From IMG/VR virus record IMGVR_UViG_3300005096_000013, positions 1-51,070 of that record: a stretch of DNA of 51,070 bases. One strand, given 5' to 3'. The notes below the pieces were generated by a model. That model made no database searches, was not told the origin of the DNA, and was given only the letters and a program-made list of their open reading frames with translations. Positions 2,766-50,582 of the stretch are shown here, in pieces. How positions within the stretch are numbered: the first letter of the stretch is position 1; each line of letters begins with the position of its first letter. This DNA is from a virus (lineage: Duplodnaviria > Caudoviricetes). A program made the translations under genes and the position numbers.

Positions 2766-3343
2766 AGAAGCAAATAGAAGATACTCAATTGGTAGAAATG
2801 AAGGAGGATGCTGGGGACCTTCTATCTGAGACTGTGGAGGATGTCTTTGCGGGCAGGCCCTTAACTTCTCGTGAGATAAAAGATGTTAAGGGTCTTTTGT
2901 CTTTTCAGAATCCTTTGGCGATTGGGCGGGCTCTCCGGGACCAGGGTTTCAGTTTGGACTTTTTGTTCCGGGAACTCTTTGTCTTGTATTTGGAGAGTGA
3001 GGAAATAGCTCAGAAGTTGAAGATATTGAAAATGATGGGGAGTTGGGCGAAGGATTCGGCGGCAGATTTGGTACGTCAAATGTTGAGTAGGCAATTGGTA
3101 GCTTCAGGTAGCCGTGATGGGGAAGCTCCTCCGGAGGAAGTGCGTGTGTTGGGTACTGGTGATTTGGGGGTGCCGGGAGTTCTAAATAAATTTATGGGTA
3201 CGGAACCTACGGATGACGTAGATTCCGAGGAAGGAAAGGATTCAGATGGGAAAGAAAATGAAGAAGAAAAGAAAGAAGAAGACGTTGGAGACGCCGAAGT
3301 CAGTCTTACCGGAAGTGTCCATTTCCCCCCCGAACATAATTGA
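2759..3343 (+). CDS. Hypothetical protein with acidic C-terminus (possible small terminase position)
   Basis: ORF coupled to the upstream gene, two genes before the large terminase. Confidence 0.55.
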   Translation: MVKKQIEDTQLVEMKEDAGDLLSETVEDVFAGRPLTSREIKDVKGLLSFQNPLAIGRALRDQGFSLDFLFRELFVLYLESEEIAQKLKILKMMGSWAKDSAADLVRQMLSRQLVASGSRDGEAPPEEVRVLGTGDLGVPGVLNKFMGTEPTDDVDSEEGKDSDGKENEEEKKEEDVGDAEVSLTGSVHFPPEHN

Positions 3344-3884
3344 GTCTGACGGTATTGAATTTGTAGATGAGCCTCTACCTGTAGATGATTGTGCTCCTGT
3401 GGGAGAGATTGAGGGGGATGAGGGTATAGAGCATGTAGATGGGGAGGATTTGATTCAGGAAGAAGCCTTGGTTGATGCTCGGAGAGATGAGTTGGATGCC
3501 TCTGAAGTTTCTGGCAAAGCCTTAAGAACTTTCCAAGTGGAGAGGTATGAGGAGGAATTGGCACAGCAGGATATTCCTAAAAAACTTCTGGGCTACATAC
3601 ACATCACAGCGGCGTATTATGTGTTGGGTAAAGTTTTTGGGGCCTCACGGGCGGTTCCTGTTTATACTCTGTGGAATACAGGTTTGAACAGCGACGAGTT
3701 AGCTGCGGCTATGGTTTCTTTGGCACGTCAGCCAAAGTTTTACGTTAACTGGCTTCCTGCTCTCCGTCGTTTTTACCCCGACGGTATCGAAGTTTCACGT
3801 TCGGCGGTTGCTATTCTCCTTCTTCAGTTGGCATGCTTCGAGATTATGAGGAGCCCCGGTGTCAAAGCAGTTTCAGACAAATAA
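3246..3884 (+). CDS. Hypothetical protein
   Basis: 212-aa ORF overlapping both neighbours; start uncertain. Confidence 0.55.
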   Translation: MGKKMKKKRKKKTLETPKSVLPEVSISPPNIIESDGIEFVDEPLPVDDCAPVGEIEGDEGIEHVDGEDLIQEEALVDARRDELDASEVSGKALRTFQVERYEEELAQQDIPKKLLGYIHITAAYYVLGKVFGASRAVPVYTLWNTGLNSDELAAAMVSLARQPKFYVNWLPALRRFYPDGIEVSRSAVAILLLQLACFEIMRSPGVKAVSDK

Positions 3885-5784
3885 TAAATATTTTCCCCTA
3901 CCTGCGGATTATCCACAGTTAACTAAGGAAGGTAAGAGACAAGCTAGGGTGGCGGTTGTCAGTGACTTTCGCACTCCTCAATCAGCGACTTTGGCTTGGT
4001 TCTATTTCCGTAAGTGGTATTTAGCACCTTCTACTTCTTTCCATAAATCTTTTATTGCCAGTCCTCCTTTTCACTACCAGATATGGCATGACTTAGTGGC
4101 TTACGACTACAATGTCTTGGCTGCTCCCCGTGGTTCAGCTAAGAGTACAGTTGTAGGGACCGAGATGCCTTTGATGATTCTTTGTACAAGACCTCATTCA
4201 ACTACAACGCTCTGTTTAGCTACTGATGCAATGGTAAGGGAGCGGTTCGACCTTATCATGGAGCAGATAGCTTCCAACAAATTTATTGAGGCCGACTTTG
4301 GAACTTTGAAGACTGGTAGAAATAAAGGAGTTTGGAGTAATCACTATCTGCGGTTGGCTAATGGAGCGAAACTTAAGGGCTTTGGTGTAGGAGGGAGAAA
4401 GAGAGGGGCTAGGCCGGACCTCTTTATTTTGGATGACCCGGAGTTTGACGCAGCTAGCCCTGAGACTATGGGTAAAATCCGAGGTGAGTTTAGTCAGATG
4501 ATGTTCCAAGTCATTCTTCCTATGCTGGAAGAAGGTTCCAAGTTGTTCTGGATTGGAACTATGATTAACCGCCGGACGCTTATCTATTCGGCTTTCTACG
4601 GAGAGGACCCTCGTTTCAAGTATTGGAACAGGCGTATTCTTGCTGCCGGGGCCCGGAACGGTGATGGATTCACTAAGCTGTTGTGGCCTGAAAAATGGAG
4701 TGAGAAGTTTTTGTTACGGAGGCAGGGGGAGATGGGCTCGGCGGCTTTTTCTGCCGAATACCTTAATGACCCTGTTTCTGAGCAATCTAGATTGTTCTAT
4801 ATTGACCGAACTAAGAACCAATATCTTATCGAAGGTAAGGTTCCCCACTACCCCTTTGACGATACCGAGTCAAAAATTATAGCTTTCAAGTATGGAAAGC
4901 TAAAAGAGGATGGGGGAGAGGTGGTACAAAACGGAGTCCCTCGTAAGTGGGGGTCTATAAGTGTTAACGAGCCTTATGCCCGGTGGCTTAGAAGTCTTTA
5001 CCGTGTCATTCTGGTTGATTATGCAAAATCAGTGACCCCTACTAGTGATTCTAGTGCTGTGATAACTGTAGGTTTTGATGTTGATAACGTTATGTGGGTA
5101 TTGGATGCTTGGGTTGGGAAACAGATAGGCGATGCTCTCATCAATACCATTATGAAGTACGGGTTAAAATGGTTGCCTCATGCAGTGTGCCCTGAAGCTG
5201 TAACGATTCAAAGGCAAATGGCAGAGAATGCAGCGGCGGCTATCTACGGGCAGGCGGGAGCTACGGGCTGGGTACCTAGAGTACTTCCCCCTAAGTACCC
5301 TTCAAATATGCCCAAGGCCGACAGGATTATCTTCGCTCTTGAGCGGCGATTAAGGCGGGGAAACTTGAAGTTGCCTATCAACCCGGAGAACAATGGAGAA
5401 CTCTACGATAATGTCTCCTGTAACTCCCTGCGGATTTTAGAAAATCAGATGCAGGATTTTACCCCCGACTTGGCTCTCCTGCCTCACGACGATGCTATTG
5501 ATTGTCTCTCCATTGCAGGTTTTATCAGTTACCGTCGGGGGGTTCCTTTAGAAGACGATGAGAAAGTAGAGACCGCCAAAGAACTTATCCTAAAGGGTGA
5601 GTTGTATTGGCCGGGGACAGGTCTCCCTCTTATCGACGCAATACCTACTCAACAGCTTACAGAAGAAATACTTGCAATTTTAGAGGAAAGGGTATATAGG
5701 AGACTAAGAATGTCCCAGTTTAATAGAGGAAGGATGCCTACAGCTTTTGACAGGCAACGACATACCCTTATGAGAGGACTCTAG
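3859..5784 (+). CDS. terL: Terminase large subunit
   Basis: Walker A APRGSAKST, RGARPDLFILDDPE (Walker B), IGT coupling motif, RNase H-like nuclease motifs VDYA and HDDAID; GAGGAG RBS before GTG. Confidence 0.92.
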   Translation: MSKQFQTNNKYFPLPADYPQLTKEGKRQARVAVVSDFRTPQSATLAWFYFRKWYLAPSTSFHKSFIASPPFHYQIWHDLVAYDYNVLAAPRGSAKSTVVGTEMPLMILCTRPHSTTTLCLATDAMVRERFDLIMEQIASNKFIEADFGTLKTGRNKGVWSNHYLRLANGAKLKGFGVGGRKRGARPDLFILDDPEFDAASPETMGKIRGEFSQMMFQVILPMLEEGSKLFWIGTMINRRTLIYSAFYGEDPRFKYWNRRILAAGARNGDGFTKLLWPEKWSEKFLLRRQGEMGSAAFSAEYLNDPVSEQSRLFYIDRTKNQYLIEGKVPHYPFDDTESKIIAFKYGKLKEDGGEVVQNGVPRKWGSISVNEPYARWLRSLYRVILVDYAKSVTPTSDSSAVITVGFDVDNVMWVLDAWVGKQIGDALINTIMKYGLKWLPHAVCPEAVTIQRQMAENAAAAIYGQAGATGWVPRVLPPKYPSNMPKADRIIFALERRLRRGNLKLPINPENNGELYDNVSCNSLRILENQMQDFTPDLALLPHDDAIDCLSIAGFISYRRGVPLEDDEKVETAKELILKGELYWPGTGLPLIDAIPTQQLTEEILAILEERVYRRLRMSQFNRGRMPTAFDRQRHTLMRGL

Positions 5785-29607: not shown

Positions 29608-30021
29608 TCAACCATTTTTTTTGTCAGGAATCCACTTCATCGTACCCAGTACGTCACTCTCTCGTATGAAAAGTAACGTAATCTTCCCAACCACAAGAGG
29701 TTGCCCGGCCATCCGACTCATCAATACGTAATCTCCTTCCTTGTAAAGTTTACATTCGGAGCCGATAGCCACTACTCTACCGTAAGGCATGGGTTCTTGG
29801 AAGGCATTGTCAGGCATAAAGATGCCTCCCTCTGTAACCTTACGTTGTTCAATTACCTGTACCATCAAGTAATAGGGAGAAGGCATAGGCACCGAAAGGT
29901 ATCCGGGTTCCCCTTTGGACTCCACAGGGATACTGTCGGGAGACTCCTTACGTTTAAGGGCAGCCTTCGCCGTCTTAAAATTCAAGGTTGATTTTCTGGA
30001 AGTCACTTTCTTTTTAGCCAT
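29608..30021 (-). CDS. groES: GroES-like co-chaperonin
   Basis: TEGGIFMPD mobile loop, GRVVAIG, KEGDYVL, IRESDVLG; GAAAGGA RBS before ATG 30021. Confidence 0.85.
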   Translation of the reverse strand: MAKKKVTSRKSTLNFKTAKAALKRKESPDSIPVESKGEPGYLSVPMPSPYYLMVQVIEQRKVTEGGIFMPDNAFQEPMPYGRVVAIGSECKLYKEGDYVLMSRMAGQPLVVGKITLLFIRESDVLGTMKWIPDKKNG

Positions 30022-30044
30022 ACGTACATCCTTTCGTAAAGGGT

Positions 30045-30076
30045 GGGAGCCCCGGCCCACATAGACCGAGACTCCC
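30045..30076 (-). other. Strong RNA hairpin (terminator or processing site)
   Basis: Minus strand GGGAGTCTCGGTCTA pairs with TGGGCCGGGGCTCCC using G-U pairs; intergenic. Confidence 0.5.
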
Positions 30077-40879: not shown

Positions 40880-41218
40880 TTATCTTTTTGTGTTCATATA
40901 TTGATGGAGAAGCAAGCCGATTCTGTTCACGAAATCCTCCCTTCGATGTAATGGTTTTCCCTTTGTTAATTCAGAAAGATGAAAAAGTATTGCATGGGCT
41001 AACTCGTGATAAAAAGTTTGTTCTATAGTTGCCTTACTGTAACCCGCAGGGGGAAGTAGTAATTCAACTTCTTGCGTATCATGGTTAATCCTGCCCACCC
41101 AAGGTGATTCTTTAGCTCTCTTTTTAGAAACTTTGACCAGCTTCACCTTGTAAGTAAAACCGTAGAGCTTAAATGATTTAGGCACTCTAATCCCACATTT
41201 CATGTTCAAATCCTCCAT
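40880..41218 (-). CDS. Small HExxH zincin-like protein
   Basis: TFYHELAHAI followed by EDFV. Confidence 0.7.
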   Translation of the reverse strand: MEDLNMKCGIRVPKSFKLYGFTYKVKLVKVSKKRAKESPWVGRINHDTQEVELLLPPAGYSKATIEQTFYHELAHAILFHLSELTKGKPLHRREDFVNRIGLLLHQYMNTKR

Positions 41219-43072: not shown

Positions 43073-43435
43073 TTAGGCCCTCTTGTATCCGTGTCTGTAG
43101 GGCCGTCGTTTATTGTAAGACATCTTATCTTCGAGGGCTTGGCATAGAGGTATATTCAATTCTTCACACAGGTCGAAGATACGGATAAGGACGTCGGCAA
43201 GTTCACTGGCTATGCCTATCGGCTTACCATCGAGTTCTCTTGCAACCACCTGCATGTCATCACCTTCTCGGTAGGCTTCAAATGCTTCAGAGACTTCTGC
43301 GTGTACGTTGGCCATAAGGTCACCGAAGCTGCGTTCCTTCTCCCACCAACCCTTACTTACAGCTGTAGCGTGGGATTCCGCCATGAGGAGTTCAATTACT
43401 TGTCGTTGTACTGTCCCATCTGGTACTGATTCCAT
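43073..43435 (-). CDS. MazG-like nucleotide pyrophosphohydrolase
   Basis: KGWW, HAEVSEAFEAYR, ELADVLIR, KMSYNKRRPYRHG. Confidence 0.88.
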   Translation of the reverse strand: MESVPDGTVQRQVIELLMAESHATAVSKGWWEKERSFGDLMANVHAEVSEAFEAYREGDDMQVVARELDGKPIGIASELADVLIRIFDLCEELNIPLCQALEDKMSYNKRRPYRHGYKRA

Positions 43436-43884
43436 ATTTTTTTCTCCAATTCGGCCCGGTGTTTGAGGGCTACCCGGTGGGCCTTTTCCCTTGTAGCCAT
43501 AATTTCCAATATATCTTGAAGGTCCCTATCTTCCAACTCTTTGTACCAATAATAGAGTTTCTGAGAGTAGAGTAACAGGCTAGTATAAGACGTAGAGCTT
43601 CGTGACAATTCCCTTATGAAGTAGGGAGGTTGCTTCAGGTCGTAGCAAAATACCACGTATTTCCATATTGGGTAGGATGTGTGGTGCTTGGCGTTCCGGG
43701 CCAGTACGTAGTAGAGCGGCCCCGCCAACTTCCTACACTTGTAGCCTACTACACGAGAGACCTTTGCTGAAATGATAGAAGGTATGGGGTCCAGACGTAG
43801 AGCGGATAGCAGGACCTCGCGGGCTACTGTACGTTTGGGTTTCTTTGAATCTAGTACTCTTATCACTCCGGGCTCCTTAATCAT
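43396..43884 (-). CDS. Hypothetical protein directly downstream of E1
   Basis: Start overlaps the E1 3' end. Confidence 0.6.
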   Translation of the reverse strand: MIKEPGVIRVLDSKKPKRTVAREVLLSALRLDPIPSIISAKVSRVVGYKCRKLAGPLYYVLARNAKHHTSYPIWKYVVFCYDLKQPPYFIRELSRSSTSYTSLLLYSQKLYYWYKELEDRDLQDILEIMATREKAHRVALKHRAELEKKIWNQYQMGQYNDK

Positions 43885-44572
43885 AAGTCATTGACAATGC
43901 CAGTATGTTACAGTGAAGAACAGACTGAAGAGGCATGTAACGTAAATGTTGGGAGAAATAAGCAACCAACGTTGCTGCACACATGGAGGCACAGTAGAGA
44001 GTTGTCTTAGCGGTGCACCTGACTTTGGCTGCCTCCTCTTGGGGAAATAAGGATTTCTCATAGGCAGCGATGCTTTCAGAATCACGCTTGTAGCAAGATA
44101 ATATATCGTACTGCTCGGCGGCCAAGCGGGAGTCCAACCACAATACAGCTTCAGGACTACAGTCTTTCGATTTGAAAGCGTGAACAAAAATGCTTCGGCG
44201 GGCTGATATACTATCTACACAGCAGAAAGTGACAGCCTGTAAAGGTTTTGTAACTTCGTAACGAGTAGGTATTGCAGTCACTTCGATTTCCGGATAGATT
44301 CGGGTCATGTCATCTAGGCAGGCTGAGACTTTGAGCTGCCCTAACTGGTCAGGCCGAAAACCTTGAACCCCTAAGTTGGCTTCATCTACGGTGTCGTGGT
44401 CCCATAGGGTTATATGTTTTACACCCATAGCTGCAAGTATTAGAGCTACTTGCCTGCCTACTGCACCTACTCCGATGATTCCAACAGTTGTGTCTTGGAG
44501 CCATTGGTCGGGGAGAATATCCCACTGTCTTGCGTTACGTAATCCGAGAGTTGGTTCTTTAGTTTTTACCAT
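43877..44572 (-). CDS. ThiF/E1-like ubiquitin-activating enzyme
   Basis: ARQ, GVGAVG, DHDTVDEANL, KV, CVDSISAR, candidate catalytic Cys in RCTAK. Confidence 0.9.
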   Translation of the reverse strand: MVKTKEPTLGLRNARQWDILPDQWLQDTTVGIIGVGAVGRQVALILAAMGVKHITLWDHDTVDEANLGVQGFRPDQLGQLKVSACLDDMTRIYPEIEVTAIPTRYEVTKPLQAVTFCCVDSISARRSIFVHAFKSKDCSPEAVLWLDSRLAAEQYDILSCYKRDSESIAAYEKSLFPQEEAAKVRCTAKTTLYCASMCAATLVAYFSQHLRYMPLQSVLHCNILALSMTYD

Positions 44573-44574
44573 TG

Positions 44575-45510
44575 TTAATCCTTTCTTGTTTTTGCTTCTT
44601 CCACGCTTGCTACTTCTACAAGTTTACCTCCGACTTCTTCCTTTTCCTCCTCGAAGGACAGGTCAAAATATTCTTCAACTACGTCGAGATAGCACTTAGG
44701 ACACTTCCAATCCATATACTCCAAGGCTTTAAGAGAGATTGTAGCGTTGCAAGCCGGGCATTCCATCGTGCCCGACACTCCGAAGTCCTCTTTCAGAAGG
44801 TCTATGTAAACTTCTCTGGTATCCCAAAGTTCTTCATCATAACCTCCTTGATAACAGCCTTTAGGGTCAAAGGGAGGACATAAGAAGTTTGTAGGTGGAA
44901 GGGTTGTGACTTGCTTCTCGTAAAGCTCTTTCCAGTGCTCTTTATCTTGTTGGGAAACTCCGGGGAAAGGCTGGTCCCAAGCGATTTCGGCATGAAGGTT
45001 GATAAAACCTACCGGACTTTTGGTTGGAGAATATTGGAGTCGAATATAGGCTCCCGTGAGGTTCTGGTCAAGGATACACATTACTGCCCATGACATCTGG
45101 CTGTAAGTACGCATGAAGGTATCCTCGTCCGTACCGCTGGGGTTAGTCCCCATACCCGGATGGGTGTGTATCCAGACTCTTGAACTTCGGTAAGGAGGAA
45201 TGCCTTCAAGGGCGGCTTCAGCTATCAGGTCGTTCACGCTGTCTTGGTTGAGGTCTACGACTGCTCCCCCTACTTGTTGGACCGGCAAGAGGATGTCCTC
45301 TACACAGAGCAGGTCGTCCTCCATAGTTTGGCCAAAGCAACTCACCTCGCAATCCTCCCTCTGGTTTCGGAAGAAGGAAAGTTTTGCCCATGCGTAGGGC
45401 GTGAACCTCAAGGCCGGATTGCTGGGCAGTTTCAGGAATTGGCGGGGTTGCTGAACAGCCGAATACTGTTCCTTCTTTGACTCTTGCTTTTTCCTTTTAC
45501 CTTTCTTCAT
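44575..45510 (-). CDS. JAB/JAMM metallopeptidase with C-terminal zinc ribbon
   Basis: Glu (CEV) plus HTHPGMGTNPSGTD (HxH-x7-S-x2-D); CPAC/CPKC; ATG 45510 overlaps the upstream TGA, with AGGAG RBS. Confidence 0.9.
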   Translation of the reverse strand: MKKGKRKKQESKKEQYSAVQQPRQFLKLPSNPALRFTPYAWAKLSFFRNQREDCEVSCFGQTMEDDLLCVEDILLPVQQVGGAVVDLNQDSVNDLIAEAALEGIPPYRSSRVWIHTHPGMGTNPSGTDEDTFMRTYSQMSWAVMCILDQNLTGAYIRLQYSPTKSPVGFINLHAEIAWDQPFPGVSQQDKEHWKELYEKQVTTLPPTNFLCPPFDPKGCYQGGYDEELWDTREVYIDLLKEDFGVSGTMECPACNATISLKALEYMDWKCPKCYLDVVEEYFDLSFEEEKEEVGGKLVEVASVEEAKTRKD

Positions 45511-46811
45511 GCTTCTTGGCTCCTTTCTTCTAGACAAGTTTCGCATAATCCATCTTCTAAAGCTGTAGGACAAAATAGTTTATCACAGGACTTACAGGGG
45601 ACGAAATGTTCTTCATAACATGTGGCACAAAAGAGTTCCCCACATACATCACAATATTCTTCGCAGTCACCACATACATAGTCCGTACATTCACTGCAAT
45701 TCTTTAAGCACTCAGTGCAGAATTCTTCTTTACAGTCAACACATTCTTCCATACAGTCAGGACATGCTACATGGCCACATTCAGTACATTCTTTGGTACA
45801 GTCTGGACAAAGAGTCTCTCCACAGATATGGCAAGTGGTACGTGTGCAGAGAGTACAGACAGCTCTTCCACAGTGGTCACATGCAGTCATGCAGTCAGGG
45901 CAGGCTGCCTCATCACAGAAAACACACACTTCCAACGCCTCGTCGAGGTAGGTTTCATTACAGCAGGAACAATCCGAAGATGTATAGCCTGCCATTGTTG
46001 CAATAGTTCTATAAGCTCCTTCACGTTCGTATCCGTGCAACACTCCTATCACTATCTGGAGAGCGGGGTAGAACAGCCCTTGAGACATGAGTTGTTGGTA
46101 AGCAGCTAAGTGTTTGCCAAGACATAGGTCTCTCCCATTTGTATGGGGATGAATTTCACCGTCCTCATCCATGAAAGTCTCCTTCATGGATTCTATATCA
46201 CATTGAGAATTACTACGTGAGGTGATAAGAGGGAGGACAATACGGAAAGGCCCGAATGAGAGGCTTAAATCGTCAACTTGAGGCATGTCTTCAAAGAGCT
46301 CGAAAGCCGGTATCTCGACAGTCAAAAGGTTTGCAATAGAGGCTTCCTCGATGCTCAGAATCTCCGAACCATAATTGAGAGAAGGTGTGTTAAACAGTCC
46401 TCCTTTAGAAGTAGGAGGCTCATCCAGTATCCATTGTAGATTCTGGTAGATGTCAGATACCTGTGGCTTTGAATATTTGGAGGATGCTATAATACACCCT
46501 TTGCGGAACTCCAAGAGTTGGCTAGACCGTCGCATAAGTTCTTTGATTATTGTTCTCTGCCTTCGCAAGATAGTTCTGAAAGTTTTGTTGGAAGTGAGGA
46601 AACCCTCTGAAGGGAGTTCAAAGGGTAAAGTTGTAGAGTTTCTAGCCACATAACCCTGGGTATCCAGCCATTGGCTATTGAATTGAGCATCTGCGAAGGT
46701 GCGATGTCGAGAGGCTATCTTCTCAGCAAGTCTCCAGAGAGGTTTAGAGTAACCTCTATTCTTTGGAGGTGAACGTTTGATTTTAGGTTCTTCAATTTCA
46801 ACAGTCATCAT
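45507..46811 (-). CDS. Prokaryotic E2-like protein with C-terminal poly-CxxC region
   Basis: IHPHTNGRDLCLG matches the E2 HP-x...LCL active-site motif; ~17 CxxC pairs follow; AGGAG RBS before ATG 46811. Confidence 0.78.
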   Translation of the reverse strand: MMTVEIEEPKIKRSPPKNRGYSKPLWRLAEKIASRHRTFADAQFNSQWLDTQGYVARNSTTLPFELPSEGFLTSNKTFRTILRRQRTIIKELMRRSSQLLEFRKGCIIASSKYSKPQVSDIYQNLQWILDEPPTSKGGLFNTPSLNYGSEILSIEEASIANLLTVEIPAFELFEDMPQVDDLSLSFGPFRIVLPLITSRSNSQCDIESMKETFMDEDGEIHPHTNGRDLCLGKHLAAYQQLMSQGLFYPALQIVIGVLHGYEREGAYRTIATMAGYTSSDCSCCNETYLDEALEVCVFCDEAACPDCMTACDHCGRAVCTLCTRTTCHICGETLCPDCTKECTECGHVACPDCMEECVDCKEEFCTECLKNCSECTDYVCGDCEEYCDVCGELFCATCYEEHFVPCKSCDKLFCPTALEDGLCETCLEERSQEA

Positions 46812-46865
46812 TGGATTTGCTCCTAGTAAAGTAGGGAGGGTACCTCGGAGCACCCTCCCATTAAC

Positions 46866-47123
46866 TCAGTTGCCTTCCATCTTAGCCAAGCCAACCGTGA
46901 GAGTATCGCCCTCGTTGACTGTAGCCAAAGACTCTTCGGGATGGATAGTTTCCCAACCGGGGCAACCTGCTCTCCGGATTCTGATAGCGTGCTGGGCAGG
47001 ATTGTAACCTCCCACGTTCCCTAAAACATCATTGAGGATGTCCACTATCAAACTGTCTTCCGCGACAGCAATCCTTTCCATTCCCCCCGTTCCAGTCGTG
47101 TCAATAACCCTTACGTGCACCAT
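46866..47123 (-). CDS. Ubiquitin-like (beta-grasp) protein
   Basis: 85 aa; beta-beta-alpha pattern, EGDTLTV terminal strand, C-terminal KMEG-N; AAAGGAG RBS; first gene of the E2-JAB-E1 operon. Confidence 0.82.
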   Translation of the reverse strand: MVHVRVIDTTGTGGMERIAVAEDSLIVDILNDVLGNVGGYNPAQHAIRIRRAGCPGWETIHPEESLATVNEGDTLTVGLAKMEGN

Positions 47124-48251: not shown

Positions 48252-48279
48252 GGTTCCTTCCTGTCCGATAATCGGACAA

Positions 48280-48917: not shown

Positions 48918-48971
48918 GAATGCTCCTTTCTATCCGATTATCGGACAAACATGGTTGGAGCCCGGAGTGAC

Positions 48972-49337: not shown

Positions 49338-49400
49338 GCTTTGCCACCTTTCAAAATGTCCGATAATCGGACAAGTTATCAGTTATCCATTGTTTGGTTT

Positions 49401-49431: not shown

Positions 49432-49529
49432 CTTTTACTCAGCTATCCGTTATCCATTATTCACCGTGGCTCAAAATGTCCGATTATCGGACAAATAAAA
49501 CTATAACTTTTGAGCCATTTCATACATAT

Positions 49530-49557
49530 ATTATACCACGGATTTTAGATTTGTCAA
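49530..49557 (-). promoter_or_regulatory. Consensus sigma70 promoter
   Basis: TTGACA-16 bp-TATAAT with extended -10 TG. Confidence 0.8.
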
Positions 49558-49562
49558 GTCGA

Positions 49563-50582
49563 CGAATAAGCCTAAATTGTTGCCCTGCAAGAGTTTACGT
49601 TTTTGCTGCTTAACGTTAAGCAGTGTGTCTTTTTGAGCCATTTTGGCGCTGTTGGTGCGCTGCGTCAAGCGCTGAAAACGTGGTAGAAATATCTTGAGCG
49701 CTGAATCCGGCCGCACCAAGGGACAAACCAGCAATGCGACGACGAAAATCCACACCAAAGGTGTTTTTGGCCAAACTCTCACGCAGGACCTCTAAGTATT
49801 CGGATTCATCCAACATCGCCAGCAAGTTTCGGACTACCCAAAGCCGGGCGGCGTTGGGAAGCTCGGTAACTTGGTCAAAGAGGGTAACCCGTTGCTTGTC
49901 TAAATCCAACGACACGTCTGGCCCGCGCTTAGCTAGCTCATCGGCTTTGTCCTCGACCGATGGCTTATCCGGACCTTTTTTGTCTGGATTCTCATCCGGA
50001 CCTTTATCGTCGGGTTTTTTTGGGGGGGTTTTGGGTGCCAAGCCGTACCTTTTTAGGACGGTAGAACGGCGCTTTTTACCCTTATCCCAATATCCGGCAG
50101 CCAAGTCGGCGCGTAATTTACGCGCGTTGGCTTTGGAAAGCTTGTTGACCGGCAAAGCGACCAGTTTATCGACCTCACTTTCCGTGATTTTCAGCGCTTT
50201 CTCGGTATCGGGTTGCAATTCCAGGAGTTTCCACGAGCGGGAAAATTTGCGCCTATCAAAATCATCCAAACCTATCTGCCTCTTTGCGTAATCCAGAACT
50301 GCTTTACGCAATAATTCTGGATTGTAGTCACCTTCCCGCGCGCGGTAAACTTCCTTATACGCGCTGACCAGTTTTAGGTAAGCCCGCCCGAGCGCTGTGC
50401 CAGCTGCGCGCCAACCGCACAAAGCAGTTGAGGTAGCCTCGCGCTCGTGAGCCGATAATTCGATGATGATTTTTGCGGTTCTTGCTTTTTTTGTTGCCAT
50501 TTTTTGCTCACTTTCTGGCCAGTTGTCCGATTATCGGACAATTTCAGCCATATTGTGCAAGGCAACAATTTAGGCTTATTCG
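49563..50582. repeat. 27-bp inverted repeat pair (26/27) flanking one gene
   Basis: CGAATAAGCCTAAATTGTTGCCCTGCA at 49563-49589; TGCAAGGCAACAATTTAGGCTTATTCG at 50556-50582. Confidence 0.88.
49616..50500 (-). CDS. Hypothetical basic protein
   Basis: 294 aa, helical N-terminal part and Pro/Lys/Asp linker with KGPD repeats. Confidence 0.7.
   Translation of the reverse strand: MATKKARTAKIIIELSAHEREATSTALCGWRAAGTALGRAYLKLVSAYKEVYRAREGDYNPELLRKAVLDYAKRQIGLDDFDRRKFSRSWKLLELQPDTEKALKITESEVDKLVALPVNKLSKANARKLRADLAAGYWDKGKKRRSTVLKRYGLAPKTPPKKPDDKGPDENPDKKGPDKPSVEDKADELAKRGPDVSLDLDKQRVTLFDQVTELPNAARLWVVRNLLAMLDESEYLEVLRESLAKNTFGVDFRRRIAGLSLGAAGFSAQDISTTFSALDAAHQQRQNGSKRHTA

Follow-up and report, generated by a model that had tools for sequence, protein, structure and literature searches.

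Does a tailed phage encode a complete ubiquitin-like conjugation pathway of its own? The question is raised by four minus-strand genes of IMGVR_UViG_3300005096_000013, a virus record of IMG/VR (Duplodnaviria; Caudoviricetes; CheckV completeness estimate 97%), all 51,070 bases of which were analysed and are called the window below. An initial annotation, made from the letters alone, had read these genes as a complete set of ubiquitin-like protein (Ubl), E2, JAMM peptidase (JAB) and E1. The four open reading frames (ORFs) were confirmed at their coordinates and strand, all motifs quoted for them were found in the translations, and the completeness of the set was borne out by the folds, motifs and gene order described here. 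From upstream to downstream, the genes of the cassette are:

46866..47123, minus strand: pro-Ubl, 85 aa, beta-grasp, Gly84 then Asn85 (AlphaFold2 (AF2) model, Foldseek, family motif, ribosome-binding site)
45507..46853, minus strand: E2-like protein, 448-aa ORF, with coiled coil, ubiquitin-conjugating (UBC) core and zinc-knuckle array (AF2 model, alignment)
44575..45510, minus strand: JAMM/MPN+ metallopeptidase, 311 aa when counted from the ATG overlapping the stop of the E2 gene (797 homologues found at E ≤ 0.001)
43877..44572, minus strand: minimal ThiF-type E1, 231 aa, single adenylation domain (Pfam ThiF)

The last three genes had been described as translationally coupled, in agreement with an ATGA at 45510-45507 shared by the E2 stop and the JAB start, and with a gap of 2 nt between the JAB stop (TAA) and the E1 ATG at 44572. 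The pro-Ubl gene was preceded by an AGGAG ribosome-binding site and was separated from the E2 gene by 12 nt if the latter begins at GTG 46853, or by 54 nt if it begins at ATG 46811. The spacing to AGGAG was better for the ATG and the Atlas entry of the protein begins at residue 16; ATG 46811, rather than GTG 46853, is probably the start.

The 85-aa protein matched no family in Pfam, PHROGs, NCBIfam or PADLOC. The small ORFs upstream of the E2-like gene in related loci aligned as a clear family, and an AF2 model of the window protein from a 26-row alignment was a beta-grasp fold (mean predicted local distance difference test score (pLDDT) 86.7, predicted template modelling score 0.75). Foldseek searches of the PDB with this model gave 28 matches at E ≤ 0.001, the best being NEDD8, SUMO-2/3, ubiquitin and the Caldiarchaeum ubiquitin (E from 2.8e-4), and the beta-grasp fold on which the initial annotation had staked its reading was thus found by model and structure search. 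The protein ends KMEGN, with the conserved Gly84 followed by one residue (Asn85). A C-terminal motif of K-hydrophobic-x-G with 1-26 further residues was present in 97 of 101 Ubl homologues; the Gly was terminal in none and was preceded by Glu in 65 of the 97 and by Gly in one. Since the conserved Gly is never terminal, the family is always made as a precursor, and the residue or residues after it imply that maturation by the JAMM protein is required. The earlier suggestion that the residue after Gly fits JAB-dependent maturation is consistent with the tails found throughout the family and with experiment in Type II BilABCD systems (formerly 6C/CEHH operons): in the available text of the preprint of Chambers et al., the JAB was shown experimentally to cleave after the conserved Gly and conjugation was dependent on E1 and E2.

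Some variation was seen among the Ubls of related loci. Locus L009 encodes (3150-3887) a 245-aa Ubl with two beta-grasp regions, the N-terminal one matching Pfam ThiS and the C-terminal one Ub-Mut7C, which recalls the multi-domain Ubls of Bil. In L004 (3713-4009, 5677-7401) and L031 (3542-3985, 5599-7587), the Ubl tail and the C-terminus of a long JAMM protein carried similar strings (PGFLKR/PGFAGP and PGFAG/AGFAGP, respectively), roughly of the form P/A-G-F-A/L-G.

The E2-like protein also matched no family in the four databases. A word-index homologue search with residues 1-300 returned no homologue, nor did a scan of viral contigs seeded with the protein; exhaustive phmmer with residues 1-290 gave five weak matches (E 2e-4 to 7e-4), four of them with an HPH..C motif. 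Residues H235, P236, C244 and G246 were invariant in a family alignment of homologues taken from the related loci. The AF2 model (pLDDT 83.0) had three parts, which are listed here with the active-site motif:

46473..46745, minus strand: N-terminal long helical (coiled-coil-like) region, residues 37-127, with helices 37-74 and 90-127 in the model
45978..46472, minus strand: UBC-fold catalytic core, residues 128-292 (profile, structure search)
46116..46151, minus strand: E2 active-site motif HPHTNGRDLCLG, residues 235-246, with the predicted catalytic Cys244
45510..45977, minus strand: C-terminal Cys-rich array, residues 293-448, with 17 CxxC in about 8 repeats of CxxC-x4-CxxC

Fold searches with the whole model were dominated by the Cys-rich tail in Foldseek, which returned zinc-finger proteins only (tandem LIM/PHD-type, E at least 3.6e-3), and by the helical region in the VIA wide search, which returned helical matches to residues 34-144 only; matches to the N-terminal region were generic helical structures (Z 7-8.6). 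The core was modelled as a helix, a four-strand meander, the HPH...C loop and two helices. When a profile of the core was compared with all PDB sequences, 59 of the 60 listed matches were E2 enzymes (best E 0.0038), aligned in register such that HPH fell on HPN, Cys on the catalytic Cys and 'ynedSP' on 'PNPNSP' (HPNV..GSICL in solved E2s). In a second VIA search, all eight rows covering residues 128-292 were E2s, namely Ube2S (5bnb_C; Z 6.2, root mean square deviation 3.8, 124 of 148 residues aligned) and seven UBE2L3 entries (Z 5.5-6.0). Pfam UQ_con (PF00179) was matched by 3 of 29 core sequences (best E 0.0027), none of which matched a Prok-E2 Pfam family at E ≤ 10. Atlas structure neighbours, taken as leads, were UQ_con, Prok-E2_D, Atg3-like and CENP-O/RWD clusters. 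The presence of a UBC fold, presupposed when the protein was first called E2-like, was therefore indicated by both profile and structure.

In E2 enzymes of the UBC superfamily the catalytic Cys is preceded, at a distance of about 8 residues, by an HPN motif, and here the position of this motif is filled by the variant HPH. The pattern HPx..CxG was found in 108 of 112 family members (HPH in 104, HPN in 2, HPY in 2), the four others being ORFs cut by contig ends. At least four CxxC were present in 101 of 108 E2-like homologues, and the Cys-rich array of the window protein was modelled with pLDDT above 90. No separate gene for a ubiquitin ligase (E3) was found in the cassette, the fused Cys-rich array being weakly LIM/PHD-like. 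In some viral cassettes there are two or three E2-like paralogues in tandem (L029:2538-9558; L020:3818-5987; L039:3867-5980), one of which has HPN; L029 also carries a 1333-aa JAMM protein.

Motifs of the remaining two proteins lie at these positions:

45127..45168, minus strand: JAMM motif HTHPGMGTNPSGTD, HxHx7SxxD
44692..44769, minus strand: zinc ribbon (CxxC...CxxC) at the C-terminus of the JAMM protein (weak Pfam IBR_1, E 0.0011)
44456-44473, minus strand: GVGAVG of E1, GxGxxG
44006-44020, minus strand: RCTAK of E1, containing Cys186
44015..44017, minus strand: Cys186 of E1, candidate thioester cysteine, invariant in 32 of 32 aligned E1s

In the JAMM alignment E55, H115, H117, S125 and D128 were invariant, and HxHx7SxxD was present in the JAMM proteins of 118 of 118 loci. 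The solved proteins closest to the JAMM profile were the Caldiarchaeum Rpn11-like protein (2.7e-4) and proteasomal Rpn11; Pfam Prok-JAB fell below its cut-off for the window protein (16.7 vs 25 bits), and tblastn of this protein against GenBank phages gave no match at 1e-5. The E1 matched Pfam ThiF (PF00899) over residues 24-211 (1.5e-23, 83.7 bits vs a cut-off of 28.1). Residues R15, G34/G36/G39, D58, D60, K81, D120, R149 and C186 were invariant among the 32 aligned E1s and include the Arg finger, GxGxxG and the ATP/Mg-binding residues; GxGxxG was found in 112 of 113 family members. The best solved relatives were Uba1, UBA6, MccB, ThiF, UBA5 and MoeB. Membership of PRTRC was considered and dropped (TIGR03736, 48.9 bits vs a cut-off of 144.75).

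The initial annotation had called for a survey of viral databases and had suggested a resemblance to operons of Planctomycetota. When IMG/VR was scanned with the alignment of the JAMM family, 38 related viral loci were obtained, in 32 of which profiles of the four families found Ubl-E2-JAB-E1 complete and in order; four of the six incomplete loci were cut by contig ends. A prokaryote scan (one genome per species) gave 510 relatives, the best 80 of which were analysed as loci: 77 were planctomycete by record title, as had been suggested, and the rest include a Victivallales and a Verrucomicrobiota. The Ubl was present in 67 of these 80 loci, the E2 core in 75 and the E1 in 77, and the order Ubl-E2-JAB-E1 was kept in most of them. 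Co-occurrence of the four genes is far beyond chance. On long bacterial contigs the cassette stood at the edge of a run of co-oriented element genes, with ordinary chromosomal genes on the other side; the element genes near it included a classic AAA ATPase (22 loci), a serine recombinase (9 loci), DUF2958 and N6/Eco57I-type methylases, and many bacterial genomes carried two copies of the cassette. On viral contigs the neighbours were genes of replication and repair, namely SbcC/Rad50-like, SNF2/ResIII helicase, RNase H, uracil-DNA glycosylase (UDG) and RNA ligase genes; in diverse viral contigs the cassette sits in replication modules and not in tail modules. In a quick tree of the E1 the viral branches were deep and long and the bacterial cluster shallower; no donor or direction of transfer is claimed, because the window lay on a long branch that the tree left unresolved.

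Taken together, these genes are read as encoding a ubiquitin-like conjugation cascade that is complete in itself and travels as a mobile cassette in the phages and integrative elements of Planctomycetota and their relatives in the Planctomycetes-Verrucomicrobia-Chlamydiae (PVC) group; a probability of roughly 75% is given to this reading. The predicted conjugation chemistry is well supported. From the observed folds, motifs, conservation, gene order and distribution a relay is inferred, in which each enzymatic step, the target and the timing are put conditionally. The 85-aa beta-grasp protein would be made as a precursor (KMEG-N), from which the JAMM peptidase would cut off the residue or residues after Gly84; the same peptidase would probably also strip the tag from targets. 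The 231-aa ThiF-type E1, probably a homodimer like MoeB/ThiF, would adenylate Gly84 and probably form a thioester on the invariant Cys186, and the Ubl would then be transferred by transthioesterification to Cys244 of the UBC-fold core. The E2 would hand the Ubl to a target lysine. Because no separate E3 is encoded, choice of the target would fall to the coiled coil and the zinc-knuckle array of the E2 itself, which, fused to the core, would stand in for an E3. By analogy with Type II Bil and the Caldiarchaeum cascade, this relay appears to be the most economical reading.

Several points weigh against a conjugation cascade. Its support comes from sequence, models and gene context, and no target is identifiable. 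The likeness to UBC domains is modest in structure (Z 6.2) and in sequence (best E 0.0038), and the window E2-like protein itself fell below the threshold of Pfam UQ_con (no match at E ≤ 0.1). The E1 is without the separate catalytic-cysteine domain and the E2-binding ubiquitin-fold domain of canonical and Bil E1s, and for this reason the hand-over of Ubl from E1 to E2 lacks an explanation. The window Ubl ends in a single Gly and not in Gly-Gly, and in a close relative, L002, the Ubl (4177-4461) ends KLKVA, with Val at the position of the conserved Gly; L002 is the viral locus with the best viral JAMM match to that of the window (lowest E-value). Beyond the four genes no neighbour was conserved between the related loci and the window, only UDG being common to both. 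Finally, the bacterial copies edge integrated elements with methylases and recombinases, a position that fits defence cargo equally well.

The cassette was compared with known systems as these are described in the available portions of the cited papers. Its gene order, Ubl-E2-JAB-E1, is that of Type II Bil; in both, the E2 and E1 are stand-alone proteins and the Ubl is a single beta-grasp domain in which non-conserved residues (up to about 9 in Bil) come after a conserved Gly, for removal by the JAMM protein. The BilD E1, however, has an inactive and an active adenylation domain in tandem (IAD-AAD), a CYS domain and a PF14459 N-terminal domain, whereas the window E1 (231 aa) matched ThiF only in Pfam, with PF14459, a second adenylation domain and a Cys domain absent. 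The Bil E2 is described as having Cys with a downstream His (CEHH) and no HPN, in contrast to the window E2, which has HPH before the Cys, no invariant His after it, and a coiled coil and zinc-knuckle array fused to the core. Bil is a chromosomal defence system, and the window cassette is borne by phages or elements in PVC bacteria. No Bil or Prok-E2 assignment was obtained with PADLOC 2.0.0 (which may not include Bil models), NCBIfam or Pfam.

Likenesses were also found to the Caldiarchaeum/Asgard operon, which consists of ubiquitin, E1-like, E2-like, small RING E3 and Rpn11-like genes and in which Rpn11-like cleavage of pro-ubiquitin is needed before activation by E1 (Hennell James et al. 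2017). There too a C-terminal propeptide is cut from a pro-Ubl by an Rpn11-like JAMM protein and the E2 is of canonical type; the window JAMM profile is closest to its Rpn11-like protein, and the window Ubl model matches its ubiquitin. The archaeal system differs in having Gly-Gly where the window has a single Gly, a separate RING E3 where the window has a fused Cys-rich array of putative E3 function, and a chromosomal location where the cassette lies on a phage or mobile element. A four-gene set of Ubl, E1, E2 and deubiquitinase likewise makes up Type I Bil (Collimonas; Hor et al.), for which conjugation to a protein target was demonstrated, but its Ubl has two beta-grasp domains and a terminal Gly, and its function is anti-phage defence. 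Bub operons and CBASS Cap2/Cap3 share E1/E2/JAMM chemistry in phage-bacterium conflict, and PADLOC CBASS models gave partial matches to the window E1 (E1-E2 model, 4.3e-15) and JAB (JAB model, 2.9e-4); those systems are described as having E2-E1 or Ubl-E2 fusions, the serine protease BubE, or a CD-NTase in the role of 'Ubl', and the window has none of these. By sequence the cassette is a member of neither Bil nor CBASS, and in profile comparisons its E2 and JAMM proteins come closer to those of canonical and Caldiarchaeum systems. It was filed, on these sequence criteria, as a distinct family among prokaryotic Ubl-conjugation operons, because two defining features of Bil (E1 architecture and E2 motif) are not found, no defence or Prok-E2 model is matched, and the E2 and JAMM proteins lie nearer to the canonical and Caldiarchaeum ones.

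What the cassette is used for was approached from its position in the phage. The window encodes a terminase large subunit (phrog_38, 1.2e-57) and an exonuclease, and its structural genes are on the plus strand; genes of replication and repair (family A DNA polymerase (PolA), PD-(D/E)XK nuclease, AAA_24/Sak4-like, ERCC4, UDG) make up a long block on the minus strand, with MazG-like and Cpn10 genes likewise, and the four-gene cassette sits within this block. A perfect sigma-70 consensus promoter on the minus strand, at 49557 to 49530 (TTGACA, 16 nt, TATAAT, with TG; 12/12), heads the minus-strand run into the cassette, and a consensus scan found no terminator-like site on that strand between the two. 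From this placement among replication/early genes, the most likely time of its use is during infection, and its likely objects are proteins of the host, of rival elements or linked to replication and repair. The initial annotation had proposed early use for host takeover, counter-defence or exclusion of competing phages; early expression has the support of position, and the three roles are candidates. Its position in this block and the terminator-free run from a consensus promoter, as seen in consensus scans and gene neighbourhoods, favour use by the phage itself.

The same chemistry may serve the opposite purpose, with the cassette as Bil-like anti-phage or superinfection-exclusion cargo that tags structural proteins of competing phages. 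This explanation is doubtful as it stands and yet a serious rival, given the position of the bacterial copies at element edges by methylases. It accounts for the Type II Bil gene order and Gly-plus-tail Ubl, as far as these are described, and has a precedent in the tagging of the phage central tail fibre by Bil (Hor et al.); the bacterial copies edge integrated elements by serine recombinases, N6/Eco57I-type methylases and DUF2958, many genomes having two. It sits poorly with the window, where a scan of 52 ORFs gave no integrase family, with the placement of the cassette within replication modules of diverse viral contigs, and with E1 and E2 architectures unlike those of Bil; in PADLOC no defence model was matched by the Ubl or E2, and the other two proteins showed generic CBASS JAB and E1-E2 similarity.

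Two further explanations dispense with protein conjugation. A sulfur-carrier (thiocarboxylate) pathway, or one that modifies small molecules or peptides, in which the JAMM protein only matures the carrier, is quite improbable. The window E1 is a minimal ThiF/MoeB-like domain, with ThiF/MoeB as its best NCBIfam rows (all far below cut-off); like the ThiF/ThiS and MoeB/MoaD pairs, the cassette joins a small substrate of beta-grasp fold to a minimal adenylating E1 of one domain, in which a Cys follows the crossover region. Weak PDB matches of the Ubl profile include ThiS and MoaD (E 0.56-0.6), and the Ubl of one relative matches Pfam ThiS. Those pairs, however, are without E2 or JAMM protein, end in Gly-Gly and have metabolic neighbours, whereas here the genes always include one for a UBC-fold protein whose Cys is invariant, the Ubl ends in one Gly rather than two, and its model best matches NEDD8, SUMO and ubiquitin. 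A Pfam scan of the 52 ORFs found no thiamine or molybdopterin biosynthesis family, and no rhodanese, sulfurtransferase or cofactor gene was found near the cassette; the argument of the initial annotation against sulfur transfer, from the E2 and the missing cofactor genes, gains from both this result and the UBC core. Slighter still is the probability that the JAMM and Ubl proteins serve only in processing or assembly, along the lines suggested for proteins I and K of lambda tail assembly, with the E1 and E2 homologues as non-catalytic scaffolds. An association of JAB and Ubl in phage tail-assembly clusters is described in the available text of Iyer et al. (2006), and Flavobacterium and crAss-like phages have their Ubl-like domain as part of a larger fusion protein; against this, the E1 and E2 catalytic residues are invariant over more than 100 loci and the cassette is in replication modules, not tail modules.

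Returning to the conjugation cascade, a bolder form of it would have tailed phages run a complete Ubl-conjugation pathway in their replication/early programme, tagging host or rival proteins by means of a near-canonical (HPN-type) E2 fused to a substrate-selecting zinc-finger array, in phages of Planctomycetota and perhaps, in diverged form, in Flavobacterium and crAss-like Bacteroides phages. This is put forward tentatively, as a possibility with the odds against it. In the available portions of the literature, bacterial Ubl conjugation is experimentally shown only in host defence (CBASS Cap2, Bil) and for Bub, the biological role of which is open. A complete viral cascade would raise the symmetrical question of whether viruses tag host proteins; were it run by the phage, a chemistry known in bacteria solely as anti-phage defence would become a viral weapon, and viruses would be a reservoir of eukaryote-like E2 and Rpn11-like components. 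The cassette is conserved over dozens of viral contigs and at several hundred bacterial sites, those examined being in integrated elements. Its minimal ThiF-like E1, combined with E2 and JAMM proteins whose nearest solved relatives are eukaryotic or from Caldiarchaeum, bears on how canonical E2 chemistry can do without a large E1, and on the places in which eukaryote-like components circulated. A search of the literature on the topic found no description of this phage-borne family, the supplementary tables of Bil and Bub operons, which possibly hold members, being outside the search. Related operons may, reportedly, be covered by Burroughs et al. 2011.

Similar genes were also seen in cultured phages. 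The window E1 matched 71 GenBank phage records (29 Flavobacterium, 26 Bacteroides and 16 others, among which are crAss-like genus names such as Kehishuvirus), and two of the 71 were examined, Flavobacterium phage FpV4 (L120, 565-4576) and the crAss-like 'bajarodcaudo virus 1' (L121, 475-4606). In both, the gene upstream of E1 has a JAMM motif, the gene preceding that has HSH...C-x-GS, reminiscent of HPH...CxG, and the first gene encodes an N-terminal Ubl-like domain ending K-x-K-S-G-G/A and fused to a larger protein; UDG or primase is alongside. The Ubl and E2 profiles of the window family matched nothing in these two records, the genes of which are possibly a diverged form of the cassette.

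Other features of the loci are minor. In 22 loci, viral and bacterial, the cassette had upstream of it the classic AAA ATPase (PF00004, phrog_8638; e.g. L114:1604-3094), and in 22, also viral and bacterial, an unannotated protein of about 319 aa (e.g. L099:928-1887); both were absent from the window, as were the DUF2958 and recombinase genes of other loci. No tRNA gene was found in the phage record. Elsewhere in its minus-strand block are genes for Cpn10/GroES-like (6e-11), weak SprT-like (5e-4) and weak MazG-like (0.015) proteins, at 29608-30060, 40880-41218 and 43073-43435, respectively. A 162-aa ORF of no known family (43396-43884, minus strand) begins 8 nt ahead of the E1 stop and may therefore be co-translated with the cassette; the related loci gave no homologue of it. 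A 17-bp palindrome, TGTCCGAT(A/T)ATCGGACA, occurs in five copies vs 0.11 expected by chance:

48262-48278: palindrome copy
48931-48947: palindrome copy
49357-49373: palindrome copy
49477-49493: palindrome copy
50524-50540: palindrome copy

All five are intergenic and upstream of the cassette, one of them about 40 nt downstream of the consensus promoter, and they look like operator sites for a repressor.

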